IMG/VR virus record: IMGVR_UViG_3300032050_000069 | Length of the DNA stretch: 18,491 nt | Reading direction: 5' to 3' (one strand) | From: a virus | Lineage: Duplodnaviria; Heunggongvirae; Uroviricota; Caudoviricetes | Part shown: one piece after another, positions 3,004-13,130 of the stretch | Numbering within the stretch: position 1 is the stretch's first letter | Layout of the letters: the number at the start of each line of letters is the position of its first letter | Made by a program: the position numbers and the translations under genes | Notes under the pieces: model-generated | Databases searched by the model: none | Seen by the model: the letters and a program-made list of their open reading frames with translations, nothing else | Told to the model about the DNA's origin: nothing

Positions 3004-3150
3004 TGTAGTGTGTTGAAATTGGCAGACAAGCCTTCCTGTCTCGGAGGTGAGGAGCATCTGATAAACGTAGAATAATGGGTTGACCACAATGCCGGCAATG
3101 TTCTATGGCTAAAGACCTCGTATGGTGTTCGAATCCCATCACTACAGCCA
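3004..3150 (+). tRNA. Atypical tRNA-Asp(GUC)-like RNA, 147 nt, with 74-nt variable region and encoded CCA
   Basis: Acceptor TGTAGTG/CACTACA + G + CCA; D-arm TTG-AAATTGGCAGA-CAA; anticodon arm CCTTC-CTGTCTC-GGAGG; T-arm ATGG(T)G-TTCGAAT-CCCAT; insertion at 3048-3121. Confidence 0.75.
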
Positions 3151-4661: not shown

Positions 4662-4848
4662 TGATGGCCATTATTTAGAGTTAATGGATAGAATTCATAT
4701 TGTAATGATGAATGTGCAAGACCATTTATTAGACCATCCTTTAACCATATACCATTCTGATATAGTGAAGAAATTAGAAAAGGCACAGCATAATCTATGG
4801 AAGGCCTATCAATTAGTCGGTGAAAAGGAATATGGAAAAACGAAGTAG
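4624..4848 (+). CDS. Hypothetical helical protein (74 aa)
   Basis: Protein-like amphipathic sequence (GHYLELMDRIH...DHPL); start uncertain because it overlaps the upstream ORF by 38 nt. Confidence 0.6.
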   Translation: MSSKKQKKNSEINDGHYLELMDRIHIVMMNVQDHLLDHPLTIYHSDIVKKLEKAQHNLWKAYQLVGEKEYGKTK

Positions 4849-5266
4849 AGAGGTTCAGATGGAGTTATTACTTCATCACTTTAAACATAATATAAAAACT
4901 GAAATACGCCATTCTCCTATTGATGGAATTGGTGTTTTTGCTATTAGAGATATATTAGCAGGAGAAGAAGTTTTTCCACAATGGGAACACCCAACGGGAC
5001 TTTACATAATAGAAAATAAAAGATTTAGAGAACTGCCGGAAGAGGTTCAATCCCAAATAGATAAACATTATATTAGTAGAGTAGATGGGTTTAAGATAGT
5101 TAGATTATTTAATGGACTGAATTTTTTCTACAATTCATTTTGTTTTTGTAATAGTGCATATCCTAACTTTGGTGATACAAACATTTCAAATGATGGAATC
5201 GCTTTAAGAGACATCAAAAAGGGTGAGGAGATACTAGAAGCATATACTGAAAATATTCCTTTGTAA
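4832..5266 (+). CDS. SET-domain protein (putative lysine methyltransferase)
   Basis: SPIDGIGVFAIRDILAGE (motif I) and ALRDIKKGEEILEAY (C-terminal motif). The NHS motif reads NSA. ATG 4832 preferred over GTG 4820; ATG 4859 is also possible. Confidence 0.8.
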   Translation: MEKRSREVQMELLLHHFKHNIKTEIRHSPIDGIGVFAIRDILAGEEVFPQWEHPTGLYIIENKRFRELPEEVQSQIDKHYISRVDGFKIVRLFNGLNFFYNSFCFCNSAYPNFGDTNISNDGIALRDIKKGEEILEAYTENIPL

Positions 5267-5665: not shown

Positions 5666-7312
<1,647 letters not shown>

Positions 7313-8739: not shown

Positions 8740-9645
8740 ATGAGAGAAAACAAACCAAATTTAGGATATGCCTGTATCAATATGAGTATGGGTAAAAAGG
8801 TTACTACCAATCGTGCAATGATTAAGAGAACTTTTGAGGCGAGGGGGTTAGATTATGTATCCGATTTGGCATTGGCTAACTCAAAGGATATAATAAAGAT
8901 TTTAGAGTGGAATAGATTAAATGGAATTATGTTATTCCGTCTATCATCCACTATCATTCCGTGGGGTGACCATATTGATATAACACAACTTAAAGATTAC
9001 AAAGAGATTAAGAGTGAGTTAAAGAAGGCAGGTGATTTTGCTAAGTTTTGGGGTATGAGAATCAACTCCCATCCAGGCCCATTTGTTGTTCTTACTTCAC
9101 CTAATGAAACCGTAGTGAGTAATGCGATTAGAGATTTAGAATTGCATGCTACTATATTTGATATGATGGGTTTATCTAAAACTCACTACAACAACATCAA
9201 CATACATTGTAATGGTGTATATGGCGATAAGCAAAGTGCAATGGATAGATTCATAGAAAACTTTAAGAGATGTTCCCCATCAGTTAGGAAAAGATTGACA
9301 GTGGAGAACGATGATAAGGCTTCAATGTATTCAGTTAAAGACCTAATGTATATCCATCAAAATACCGGCATTCCTATTGTATTTGATTATCATCATCACC
9401 AATTTTGTACCGGAGACCTTTCGGAAGAACAGGCTCTTCGATTAGCTGCAACCACATGGCCTAATGGAATTCGACAAGAGGTTCATTATTCTGAATCAAA
9501 GGCATTGCACGAAAACAACCAAAAAGAAAAACCACAAGCCCATTCCGATTATATTAACCAATTACCTAATACTTATGGATTGGATATAGATATAATGGTG
9601 GAGGCCAAAGCAAAAGAATTAGCTATATTACCATTCTTAAATTAA
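8740..9645 (+). CDS. uvsE: UV DNA damage repair endonuclease (UvsE/UvdE family)
   Basis: LGYACIN, LFRLSS, HPGPFVVL, INIHCNG, LTVENDD, VFDYHHH, HYSES, AHSDY, DIMVEAKAKELA. Confidence 0.95.
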   Translation: MRENKPNLGYACINMSMGKKVTTNRAMIKRTFEARGLDYVSDLALANSKDIIKILEWNRLNGIMLFRLSSTIIPWGDHIDITQLKDYKEIKSELKKAGDFAKFWGMRINSHPGPFVVLTSPNETVVSNAIRDLELHATIFDMMGLSKTHYNNINIHCNGVYGDKQSAMDRFIENFKRCSPSVRKRLTVENDDKASMYSVKDLMYIHQNTGIPIVFDYHHHQFCTGDLSEEQALRLAATTWPNGIRQEVHYSESKALHENNQKEKPQAHSDYINQLPNTYGLDIDIMVEAKAKELAILPFLN

Positions 9646-9649
9646 GTGA

Positions 9650-10504
9650 ATGAGATTCGTTTATCTACCGACGTTAAATGTTTTAATCATATTTTTTAAT
9701 AAATCTGGTAGCACATTATATTGTGGGTGGATTGAAAATGTAATAACATTTTTAGGAGTTCCTTATGAATTAAAATTACATAACGAAATAGATTATATTG
9801 ATTTTATAGAAAAGGTATATGATAAAAAACCAAAGATATATTTCTTTGTTCGTAATCCTTTGGAGAGAGTTGTAACTTCGTTCTATTGGTTAAATACATT
9901 CGATATAAAATCAAAGGATAGCCAATTTCCATTAGATGAATTCATTACCTATGCGGATAATTTAGAGCAATCAATAGAAAAAAGTGATGATATGCATCTC
10001 CTACCACAGAGTTGGGAATTGATTAAATGGAATAACTACATAAATGGTAGAGAAAACTCAATGTTTGAATTTAAAAATTTTAGATACGATAAGAGGTTTT
10101 TTAAGGGTTGTGAGATTGTTATTGTTCAAATTGAAAAATTCCAAAAGAATTTCGATGCACTAATTCAATCGCTATTTGCTGATAATTATATTCCATCCTA
10201 TAATAAGTTGGAAGAGGTAGGTAATCATCATTACTACAAAAACTCATTTGGAATTATAGAAGAACTCCATCAACAAAAAACTAATTTTGAAATGATGTTC
10301 TCTTTACTTTCCTATAACTTTGTTGAATCAAATTTAAAAAAGCAAACCCACCACAATAATTTGTATGGGGGGTTGATAATTCGATTGGAAAAAATTAAAG
10401 AAGGAGTTCTCTCCCTAAATAAAATAAATGAAATTCTGGCTAATGAAAGCAAGTGGTTAGGATACGATAATTCCCTTATTTTAAATATGAATAGATTTAT
10501 ATGA
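9650..10504 (+). CDS. Sulfotransferase family 2 protein (paralogue A)
   Basis: 5'-PAPS loop FNKSGSTL, 3'-PAP motif FVRNPLERVVTSF, HLLPQ. Confidence 0.75.
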   Translation: MRFVYLPTLNVLIIFFNKSGSTLYCGWIENVITFLGVPYELKLHNEIDYIDFIEKVYDKKPKIYFFVRNPLERVVTSFYWLNTFDIKSKDSQFPLDEFITYADNLEQSIEKSDDMHLLPQSWELIKWNNYINGRENSMFEFKNFRYDKRFFKGCEIVIVQIEKFQKNFDALIQSLFADNYIPSYNKLEEVGNHHYYKNSFGIIEELHQQKTNFEMMFSLLSYNFVESNLKKQTHHNNLYGGLIIRLEKIKEGVLSLNKINEILANESKWLGYDNSLILNMNRFI

Positions 10505-11571
10505 TGAAAGCATTAACTTACGATGACATCCAATTAGTTCCCGCTTATTCGGAAATCACATCAAGACAAAACATCAGCCTCAATACCCTATTAAGTAGAA
10601 GATATGGTTTGTTGAATCCAATTGTTGCATCACCTATGGATACTATATGTGGTGAAGAGATGGCCTATAAAATGATGTTATTGGGAGGAGTTGGTTGTGT
10701 GCATCGATTTATGACGATTGAAGAGCAAGTTGAAATAATTAGGAATTTGAGATACCGAATCTATGGAGATGGCTTTGGTGGCCCATTTGAAGATTGGGGG
10801 GTAATGTATGATGATTGGCATGCCGAAGAACCTTATGTTCCAATTATGGCGGCCATAGGAGTTCAAAGTGAAGATAAGGATAGAGCAAAAATGATTACTG
10901 ATGCGGGTGTGAATGTTCTCCTAATTGATGTAGCACATGGTCATCATAAGAATGTTATTCAGATGATTAAGTGGTGTAAGGATAATCTGAATGATAAAGT
11001 TGATGTAATAGCTGGAAATATAGCAACTGCGGATGCGGCTATTGATTTAGAAAGGGCAGGGGCTGATGGATTAAGAGTTGGTATTGGTGGAGGTTCTCTT
11101 TGCACTACAAGAGTTAAAACAGGCTTTGGTATTCCAAATGTTACTTCTCTTCAACAAGTTTTAGAAGTTTCAACTGTGCCGGTTATGGCAGATGGTGGGA
11201 TAAGAAGTAGCGGTGATATAGCAAAGGCATTGGCAATAGGAGCATCTAATGTTATGTTAGGCTCATTATTGGCGGGAACTGACGAAGCACCTGGTCAAAT
11301 TATAGAAAAGGCAAATGGTTTATATAAAAGATATAGAGGTGCAGCATCTTTGGAAACTAAACTAACACACAACCAACAGGCGAGAAATGTTGAGGGAGAG
11401 AGTACAGTAGTTCCATATAAAGGAGGGGTTAAGTTCATCGTTAATGGTATATTAGATGGAGTAAAATCTGCTTTAAGTTATGCGGGAGCAAATAATCTAA
11501 AAGAATTTAAACCAGATTATGTTGAGGTTACGAATGCAGGAATGATAGAAGCAAAACCACATTTAATATGA
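10501..11571 (+). CDS. IMPDH/GMP reductase family enzyme without CBS domains, probably GMP reductase
   Basis: ASPMDT, IDVAHGH, GNIAT, catalytic loop [33 protein letters not shown]. The flap lacks the Arg-Tyr dyad of IMPDH. Confidence 0.85.
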
Positions 11572-12485: not shown

Positions 12486-13130
12486 ATGACAAATACAAAA
12501 TCACACGCCGAAGTTGAATTTGAGATTTTGAGTAAGGTAGTACCTGATGCAATAGCATTAGATTTTAAAGATGAAATACTGGCTATATGCAAAAAGTTTA
12601 GTCAAAGTGGGCAAAGTGGCGGTTCTGCCCCATATACCTCCGCAATAATTTCATCGGTAATCAATAAATTATGCACATTTCAAACCATTTCCCCATTAAC
12701 GGGTGAAGACGATGAATGGTCTGAAGGATCAAGTGATCCCGATGGTATATTATATCAAAATAAAAGAAACTCCGCTGTGTTTAAAGATGATAGTGGTGTA
12801 TGGTATTTAGATGCAATTATATGGAGAGGGGATACGGTCGGTGAAAGTGGAAACAATTGGGACAACTTCAGCGGAACTGTTGAGGGGATTAGGAGTAGAC
12901 AATACATTAAAGAGTTTCCATTCGAACCAAAAACATTTTATGTTGATGTAACAAGAGAGATGCTTCCAGCTGATTGGGAAGAAGAACCATTCTTTCAAGA
13001 TAAGGATTACTATATCACATCTGAATATGAAGCAACCGGTGTAAAAAATTGGATTGCGGGTGATAAGTACCGATATGTGATTAAAGACCGTAAACAATTA
13101 GAAGAAGTTTGGAAATACTATAAGAAATAA
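12486..13130 (+). CDS. Conserved phage-type hypothetical protein (214 aa)
   Basis: FSQSGQSGGSA...ISPLTGEDDEW...YQNKRNSAVFKD pattern, recalled from phage hypothetical proteins; function unknown. Confidence 0.75.
   Translation: MTNTKSHAEVEFEILSKVVPDAIALDFKDEILAICKKFSQSGQSGGSAPYTSAIISSVINKLCTFQTISPLTGEDDEWSEGSSDPDGILYQNKRNSAVFKDDSGVWYLDAIIWRGDTVGESGNNWDNFSGTVEGIRSRQYIKEFPFEPKTFYVDVTREMLPADWEEEPFFQDKDYYITSEYEATGVKNWIAGDKYRYVIKDRKQLEEVWKYYKK

Follow-up and report, generated by a model that had tools for sequence, protein, structure and literature searches.

The tRNA-shaped RNAs that act outside translation are few, namely the tRNA-like domain of tmRNA, the YrlA RNAs, the tRNA-like structures of viruses and the allo-tRNAs, and each of them has shown how cells reuse the tRNA fold. 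The allo-tRNAs, which are the nearest published kind to the RNA considered here, were proposed to be suppressors and/or regulatory RNAs, in a paper that does not mention the Bacteroidetes (Mukai et al., 2017; PMC5389517). We analysed an 18,491-nucleotide (nt) stretch of DNA from a phage of the class Caudoviricetes (IMG/VR record IMGVR_UViG_3300032050_000069; hereafter 'the window'), in which an element at positions 3004–3150 of the + strand had been described, in an earlier note made from the sequence alone, as a tRNA-like chimera rather than a decayed pseudogene. We conclude that the element is a real structured RNA gene, a member of a conserved tRNA-like family that is absent from Rfam; its chimeric and undecayed character is borne out by the conservation, with covariation, of structure, identity-type positions and insert over hundreds of copies. 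The element is not peculiar to phages: the family is chromosomal in Bacteroidota and the phage holds a copy. The best explanation of the whole, which we consider moderately probable, is that this copy derives from a Bacteroidota-chromosomal tRNA-like RNA of class II shape that does not decode, is read by a synthetase-like enzyme, docks a partner through its arm and has been remodelled by the phage.

The element is a 147-nt cloverleaf that combines a tRNA-Leu-type body with a tRNA-Asp-type anticodon arm, a U1–A72 pair, G73 and an encoded CCA. The four cloverleaf arms and the CCA end lie where they had been placed before, and the parts are as follows.

3004–3010, + strand: acceptor stem 5′ strand, UGUAGUG, forming a perfect 7-bp stem with 3140–3146
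3011–3030, + strand: U8, G9, class-II (tRNA-Leu-type) D arm and G26; 3-bp stem 3013–15/3027–29, loop 3016–26 with G18 G19
3031–3047, + strand: anticodon arm; stem 3031–35/3043–47, loop 3036–42 CUGUCUC (G34 U35 C36 = GUC, U37, C38)
3048–3120, + strand: variable-arm domain, outer part; P1 3048–52/3116–20, bulge 3053–56, P1a 3057–59/3113–15
within 3048–3120, + strand: variable-arm domain, inner part; internal loop GAUAAA(C) 3060–66 / (G)GCUAA 3107–12, P2 3067–74/3099–3106
3076–3088, + strand: hairpin A, UGG-G-UUGA-CC-A-CA; conserved GGGU[U/A]GACCAC with a bulged A
3090–3097, + strand: perfect palindrome UGCCGGCA, a self-complementary 8-mer at the apex of the variable arm
3121–3139, + strand: U48 and T arm; stem 3122–27/3135–39 with an extra T3126 in the 5′ strand, canonical loop UUCGAAU 3128–34
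3140–3150, + strand: acceptor stem 3′ strand (3140–46), discriminator G73 (3147) and encoded CCA (3148–50)

The variable arm is 73 nt long and branched. P1, P2, hairpin A and the palindrome had all been proposed and stand as drawn; an AGC/GCT helix proposed with them is not supported by the family, in which UCU 3057–59 and AGA 3113–15 form a conserved covarying pairing in its place. In its D arm, rightly called Leu-like, and at the foot of its variable arm the element is nearly identical to the phage's own tRNA-Leu(UAA). Compared with the phage tRNA-Asp, the anticodon loop (CUGUCUC vs. CUGUCAC) is changed solely at position 37, where the reported U37 is correct and where the family as a rule has a pyrimidine, almost always U or C; position 32 varies. 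The acceptor/T configuration is 7/5, with one bulge in the T stem. The reported bulge at T3126 was confirmed as well, and because an extra T-stem nucleotide recurs among the 263 distinct members that could be parsed, to which the conservation counts refer unless another set is named (28/138 phage copies and 4/125 bacterial copies, 32 in total), it is not a mark of decay. The Asp identity elements singled out earlier (GUC, C38, G73 and G2–C71) are present in the window copy and conserved across the family, whose characteristic positions it holds throughout (U1–A72, G2–C71, G73, U8 G9, G34 U35 C36 Y37 C38 and GAUAAA / GCUAA). The minimum free energy of the window element was no better than that of shuffled sequences (z = +0.71), so the single sequence proves little and the case rests on the relatives.

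Standard tools do not detect the element. ARAGORN, of which a weak call had been expected, made none at 3004–3150 in the window, and Rfam 15 gave nothing on the element there at the gathering score or at E ≤ 10. It was likewise unmatched when Rfam was run on nine phage and eight bacterial loci at the gathering score and at permissive E-values (E ≤ 10 / E ≤ 0.1), and the relatives received no tRNA call from ARAGORN or RF00005 in the loci examined. A match to a described family, with YrlA named, had been put forward as one result that would overturn the chimeric reading; Rfam holds none, and RF02553 (YrlA) matched neither the element nor its relatives. A full-text literature search returned no account of an RNA of this kind from Bacteroidota or phages.

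The earlier note had called for homologues in phages and Bacteroidota and for a covariation test of the insert; relatives were found in both, and the insert helices covary. The D-arm sequence, used as an exact word on IMG/VR, yielded 15 homologues, and a degenerate anticodon-arm pattern gave 74 distinct sequences (104–172 nt) from ∼94 phage loci. A third scan was anchored on the variable-arm motif and T loop only, which removes the anticodon-loop bias, and added ∼70 more. The degenerate pattern, applied to GTDB with one genome per species, matched at least 120 loci, nearly all of them in Bacteroidota chromosomes. At least ∼275 distinct relatives were thus gathered from IMG/VR phage contigs and Bacteroidota chromosomes. 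The bacterial copies number at least 137 in at least 114 Bacteroidota loci, where two to five often stand in tandem, and among the matches listed the carriers are Cyclobacteriaceae, Saprospiraceae, other Cytophagales, Chitinophagales and some Flavobacteriales and Bacteroidaceae. About 9% of 151 sampled Bacteroidota genomes carry the element (14/151 by BLAST, 13/151 by covariance model). Among GenBank phages (INPHARED) there is one member only, in the unannotated 636-kb assembly LR756504, and two further family members used as queries of INPHARED found no match. We believe that capture by phages was repeated or ancient. An exact-pattern match in Hoylesella (L296) was discarded as a false positive within coding sequence. 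The Persicobacter diffluens chromosome (L264, G002:C1:3606437-3607247) holds five near-identical tandem copies with a 172-nt period. In one phage contig (L198) the 3′ two-thirds of a member is present (variable arm through G73); ahead of it lie unrelated sequence and the 3′ terminus of a different tRNA, and this may be a disrupted or split copy.

When the 74 distinct phage copies were folded together with RNAalifold, 25 of the 30 predicted pairs showed compensatory changes. Besides three helices in the variable arm, the predicted fold contained the stems of the acceptor, anticodon and T arms. Anticodon and T stems both covary in this set, and P1, P1a and P2 each have many compensatory changes. 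The D stem covaries too, with pair 10–25 being A–U in 120, U–A in 81 and G–C in 56 of the 263 members. A covariance model (R1), built from 148 non-redundant phage and bacterial copies, matched the window copy over its full length with 126.7 bits (E 1.3e-33). Bacterial members scored 94–133 bits and ordinary tRNAs at most 57, the best of these being tRNA-Leu (41–57 bits). Along its whole length the window copy shares 81–88% identity with other phage copies; with Cytophagales-type copies the match (87–88% identity) is limited to the first 84 nt, as far as hairpin A.

The variable arm has a constant core, which comprises P1, a 3–4-nt bulge, a short covarying helix and the GAUAAA / GCUAA internal loop, and which is retained even in the shortest bacterial members (108 nt). 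The internal-loop motif is the most conserved piece of the arm in phage and bacterial copies alike. Hairpin A is found in 179/263 members, from phages and bacteria; among these its outer pair is G–C in 86 and U–A in 42, and about one quarter have a non-pair. Outside the core and hairpin A the length of the arm spans ∼30–140 nt. Given that the insertion point is single and that the window has an RNA ligase gene close by, the 73 nt could be seen as an intervening sequence that is removed, possibly with resealing by that ligase, to leave an ordinary tRNA. Such excision, which had been raised before, seems to us extremely unlikely: P1, the base of the insert, is an ordinary class II variable-arm helix, the insert motifs and covarying helices are shared by phage and bacterial copies, no intron or ribozyme family matched the element in the Rfam scans, and U37 and the family's variable position 33 would persist after removal.

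In decoding tRNAs, the combination of U33 and a purine at position 37 is near universal. For the anticodon loop of the family we used the 80 members that had been found without reference to the loop. In these U35 and C36 are invariant, and G34 and C38 are kept in ∼97% and ∼95% respectively, while position 33 is U in 61%, C in 28% and A in 9%; the window copy has U33 but also U37, and so lacks the canonical combination. At the other end of the molecule the pairs U1–A72 (258/263, 98%), G2–C71 (262/263, 99.6%) and U3–A70 (249/263, 95%) are near-invariant, as is G73 (262/263, 99.6%), and acceptor pairs 4–7 vary freely with covariation. U8 and G9 are each present in 263/263. At the 3′ end C74 is apparently always encoded, but the whole CCA only in 11/138 phage copies and 17/125 bacterial ones. 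Conservation at both ends, together with a variable position 33 and a pyrimidine at 37, is what would be expected of a molecule read by a synthetase and not of a decoding tRNA. Furthermore, the record of the phage itself (103 kb, ∼40% complete) contains 22 tRNAs, including a canonical tRNA-Asp(GUC), and a tmRNA; the element is therefore not needed for Asp codons. A canonical tRNA-Asp is also present in 12 related loci. In the genome of the phage, outside the window, ARAGORN placed the tmRNA at C1:6838-7219 and a tRNA cluster covering nearly all amino acids at C1:61526-65953, within which the canonical tRNA-Asp(GUC), at 63046–63118, has an unusual T arm.

These data bear on the idea that the RNA is an odd but working elongator, either a second tRNA-Asp for GAC/GAU or an allo-tRNA-like missense tRNA that is charged by SerRS and inserts serine at Asp codons. 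A complete cloverleaf with G18 G19, a canonical T loop and a 7-nt anticodon loop with GUC would suit such a role, as would its placement in tRNA arrays with tRNA-like spacing. GUC is among the predominant anticodons of long-armed allo-tRNAs (PMC5389517), and a change from A73 to G73 can shift tRNA-Leu towards serine identity (PMC9976931). We consider an elongator unlikely, however, because the family does not keep U33, has a pyrimidine at 37 and includes members with T-stem bulges, because the insertions in D loop and variable arm are very large (D loops reach ∼46 nt and variable arms ∼140 nt), and because a canonical tRNA-Asp coexists. For the serine version in particular, D arm and variable-arm base follow the Leu rather than the Ser type, and the configuration is 7/5, not 8/4 or 9/3. 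Moreover, SerRS does not read the anticodon, and charging by this enzyme leaves the strict conservation of positions 34–36 and 38 unexplained.

On bacterial chromosomes the gene has a characteristic setting. In 66 of the 114 bacterial loci listed, a regulator of the Lrp/AsnC family lies divergently ∼141 nt upstream of the RNA, with sufB and sufC after it. Close orthologues of the regulator (52–72% identity) were found in 15/15 carrier genomes and 1/15 non-carriers, a comparison that ignores kinship, and adjoin the RNA in 8 of the 15 carriers. The co-occurrence of regulator and RNA is a strong association. The bacterial gene is near tRNAs in only 4 of the 114 loci listed, and a terminator-like hairpin lies within 80 nt downstream of 31/125 bacterial copies by a crude count. 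No AsnC-like neighbour stands beside the phage copies, that of the window included; this absence marks the phage subfamily and does not exclude its members from the family. The fadD gene that lies downstream in 32 bacterial loci encodes an ordinary long-chain acyl-CoA ligase and was set aside as probably reflecting synteny only.

The best NCBIfam match of the regulator is AsnC, at 171.6 bits. In E. coli, asnC is divergent from asnA, and one may ask whether the RNA is an off-ribosome carrier of asparagine, on which AspRS would load aspartate and which GatCAB, seeing U1–A72, would amidate under AsnC-like control. The conserved Asp-type anticodon and G73 fit this idea, GatB is present in 14/15 carriers, and amidotransferases of the indirect pathway rely on U1–A72 (PMC9976931). 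We regard it as very unlikely all the same, given that GatB is equally common in non-carriers (12/15), that an AsnB-type synthetase is found in 11/15 carriers and 13/15 non-carriers, without complementarity, and that the regulator falls short of the 227 bits set as the AsnC equivalog cut-off. AsnA was absent from all 30 genomes tested, carriers and non-carriers together.

In the phage the immediate neighbours of the element are both on the + strand: tRNA-Ser(UGA) ends 4 nt upstream and an rmlC-like open reading frame (ORF) begins 16 nt downstream. A tRNA-Ser stands directly upstream of the element in many related loci and is a frequent left neighbour in the tRNA arrays of jumbo phages. A promoter and terminator scan of the window gave no signal above shuffles, and no terminator was found between the ORFs upstream of the element and the rmlC-like gene downstream; the element is thus probably cut from a long transcript, as tRNAs are. 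Further genes of the window are listed here.

3–1509, same strand as the element: AAA_33-type kinase fragment (3–365), then a 379-aa RNA ligase
2911–2999, + strand: tRNA-Ser(UGA), called by ARAGORN and Rfam (54.2 bits)
4820–5266: SET-domain protein
5678–7312: GroEL-type chaperonin
8740–9645: UV endonuclease UvdE
10501–11571: IMPDH/GMP-reductase-family enzyme
12486–13130: Tad3-like anti-Thoeris protein

The ligase has a PHA02142 OB fold and an RNA_ligase domain, its best NCBIfam match is to DRB0094-type RNA ligase, and together with the kinase fragment, 1.5–3 kb upstream of the element, it has the look of a pair for RNA repair, placed shortly before the two RNA genes. One might propose from this arrangement a decoy or spare part against a host defence that cuts tRNAs, in which the RNA would absorb or survive an anticodon nuclease directed at tRNA-Asp and be resealed by the ligase with the kinase. 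Evasion of tRNA-targeting defences is known for phage tRNAs with altered anticodon loops, and the loop of the element departs from tRNA-Asp at position 37 alone. Processing by the ligase, which the earlier note had also suggested, proved to be weakly linked to the element: a protein cluster that includes an ORF of the window and is probably the ligase lies within 5 kb in only 7 of ∼90 phage loci. Many carriers are phages of 40–65 kb in which the element has neither tRNAs nor repair genes about it and sits in a replication module (DnaB, PD-(D/E)XK nuclease, PhoH). As the family is, in addition, mainly chromosomal in Bacteroidota, in a conserved locus with its own regulator, a decoy function seems to us distinctly improbable. 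No protein could be put forward as a conserved partner beside the phage copies, the best cluster (18 of ∼90 loci) being a matter of lineage synteny. Two phage loci hold other structured RNAs. In a 180-kb contig a GOLLD RNA (L028:1-301, − strand; RF02032, 203 bits), cut at the end of the locus, lies ∼1.2 kb from the tRNA-like RNA of that phage, beside a tRNA array. In a 287-kb contig a tmRNA (L069:1511-1856, + strand; RF00023, 82.8 bits) follows the tRNA-like RNA (1316–1484) by 27 nt.

Phage copies differ from bacterial ones in three features, palindromes, D-loop hairpins and T-stem bulges, which are largely confined to them. A perfect palindrome of 8–12 nt directly follows hairpin A in 78% of 92 distinct phage versions; at that site palindromes of at least 8 nt reach 8% among 50 bacterial versions and 6.5% among shuffles. 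Their sequences are highly diverse (GCUUGCAAGC, GCCGGCCGGC, UGCAUGCA, GCUAGC and UUGUGCACAA), and that of the window copy occurs once in the 103-kb phage genome. Hairpin loops of 4 nt are self-complementary in 16/22 distinct phage versions vs. 0/15 bacterial ones, where 1 in 16 would be expected. Since a hairpin does not need a self-complementary loop, this suggests pairing between two molecules. Hairpin insertions in the D loop are found in 65/138 phage vs. 3/125 bacterial copies, and 29% of the inserts contain palindromes of at least 8 nt, vs. 7% of controls. In L128, L129, L137, L147 and ∼20 other phage loci the D-loop hairpin has a conserved, non-palindromic loop of the GGUUGUCUCAGUUAUGACC type, which suggests a second conserved binding site in phage copies only. 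Of these features, the palindrome and the T-stem bulge are present in the window copy and a D-loop insertion is absent.

It is conceivable, though we think it unlikely, that the phage copies are self-associating look-alikes, in which the apical palindromes, often with those of the D loop, join two or more molecules into a bivalent or multivalent particle that grips a dimeric host partner. Candidate partners would be the α2 AspRS or a binder of the host's AsnC-linked RNA, held with high avidity. If this is true, a regulatory RNA of the host would have become a weapon of the phage. Homodimer energies from RNAcofold were computed, and the predicted duplexes are dominated by the T loop UUCGAA and the acceptor stem.

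Returning to the synthetase-read RNA of Bacteroidota that we favour, we envisage the following. The family would have its home on the chromosome of several Bacteroidota lineages, often head-to-head with the AsnC-like regulator, from where the phage would have acquired the gene and placed its expression outside AsnC control. The RNA would be excised from a polycistronic transcript as its tRNA neighbours are, by RNase P at U1 and by 3′ trimming, to give a CCA end, and would have no use in ribosomal decoding. A protein would read both ends in the manner of a synthetase, at 73, 1–72, 2–71, 3–70, 34–36 and 38, the last of which we take to be an aspartate determinant. The best candidate for this reader is AspRS, which would either aspartylate the element or be bound by it. 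Aspartate identity depends on G73 and G34/U35/C36 as major determinants and on G2–C71 as a minor one (PMC9976931). The internal loop and hairpin A of the variable arm would offer a docking platform for a second partner, and as the result of phage remodelling the self-complementary apical loop may pair the phage RNA with a second copy of itself.

Several points weigh against this interpretation. Synthetases of class II make their approach from the side of the variable loop, where a giant arm could clash with AspRS, and a tRNA-Leu body with G73 could instead suit SerRS. Two tandem bacterial copies (L362:70-179 and 292–400) have the loop CUUUCUC, with a Glu-type anticodon UUC. The family has U1–A72 in place of G1–C72 and no fixed G10, whereas bacterial tRNA-Asp is strictly G1–C72, a pair that helps to place the 3′ end in AspRS (PMC9976931). 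The counts of regulator co-occurrence take no account of shared ancestry, and across ∼90 phage loci no protein gene is consistently beside the element. The L362 copies, in one bacterial genome, are the sole departure from G34 observed in the family.

The family is abundant, with about one in eleven of the sampled Bacteroidota genomes and well over a hundred phage contigs, and yet it has been missed by Rfam and the standard tRNA finders. The regulator tied to it is of an amino-acid-sensing type, and naming the enzyme that reads the Asp-type identity set and the partner of the arm would lead to new Bacteroidota physiology. With the features found only in phages, the remodelling of a host RNA by a virus can be put to the test. 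Annotation pipelines should no longer leave the element blank, or label it tRNA-Asp or a pseudogene.

How, then, does the element compare with its closest known relatives in form? With class II tRNA-Leu (RF00005) it shares the 3-bp D stem, the D loop GAAAUUGGCAGAC, the base of the arm (U-GAGG...CCUC-G-U), the T arm and the 7/5 configuration. It differs in having G73 and not A73, U1–A72, U37 and GUC, and thus neither of the two marks of a tRNA-Leu, A73 and a Leu anticodon, and in having a branched arm of 73 nt where that of tRNA-Leu is ∼15 nt. The likeness to tRNA-Asp(GUC) lies in the anticodon stem-loop, save position 37, and in G73 and G2–C71; C38 and GUC are among the features held in common. 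However, tRNA-Asp is of class I, with a 5-nt variable loop, G1–C72, U33 and A37, whereas the family has a class II body, U1–A72, a variable position 33 and a pyrimidine at 37.

Allo-tRNAs have ordinary class II arm lengths, unlike the 30–140-nt branched domain with conserved motifs found in the family. They resemble it in being long-armed, in occurring in bacteria and phages and in bearing non-serine anticodons, of which GUC is one of the commonest, but they are defined by an 8/4 or 9/3 acceptor/T configuration, and the family is 7/5 (PMC5389517). The YrlA Y RNAs (RF02553; PMC4201824) are similarly non-decoding tRNA mimics, with a T arm and a D arm, of bacteria and some phages; the element differs from them in lacking a match to RF02553 and in possessing an anticodon arm as well as a normal acceptor stem with G73-CCA. 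Near the element no Ro/Rsr gene was seen. The termini of YrlA lie in the Ro-binding helix.

Phage T4 species 1 RNA (rnaC) is a stable RNA that is likewise ∼140 nt long; it is encoded in a cluster of phage tRNAs and has an acceptor-like stem and a T arm like that of a tRNA. It was rejected as a homologue, its R1 score (12.5 bits, E 0.037) being below those of ordinary T4 tRNAs, and it has neither the GUC anticodon arm nor the variable-arm motifs of the family. In the T4 locus (L125:1909-2047, − strand) rnaC ends in a canonical T arm, CCGGG-UUCGAAU-CCCGG, and its acceptor-like stem contains two U–U mismatches. The conservation pattern of the family is matched by the anticodon mimics of the E. 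coli thrS operator and the yeast AspRS mRNA, in which identity nucleotides bind a synthetase for the purpose of regulation (PMC9976931). Those mimics, however, are parts of mRNAs without a full cloverleaf and CCA, whereas the element is a free-standing tRNA-like gene.

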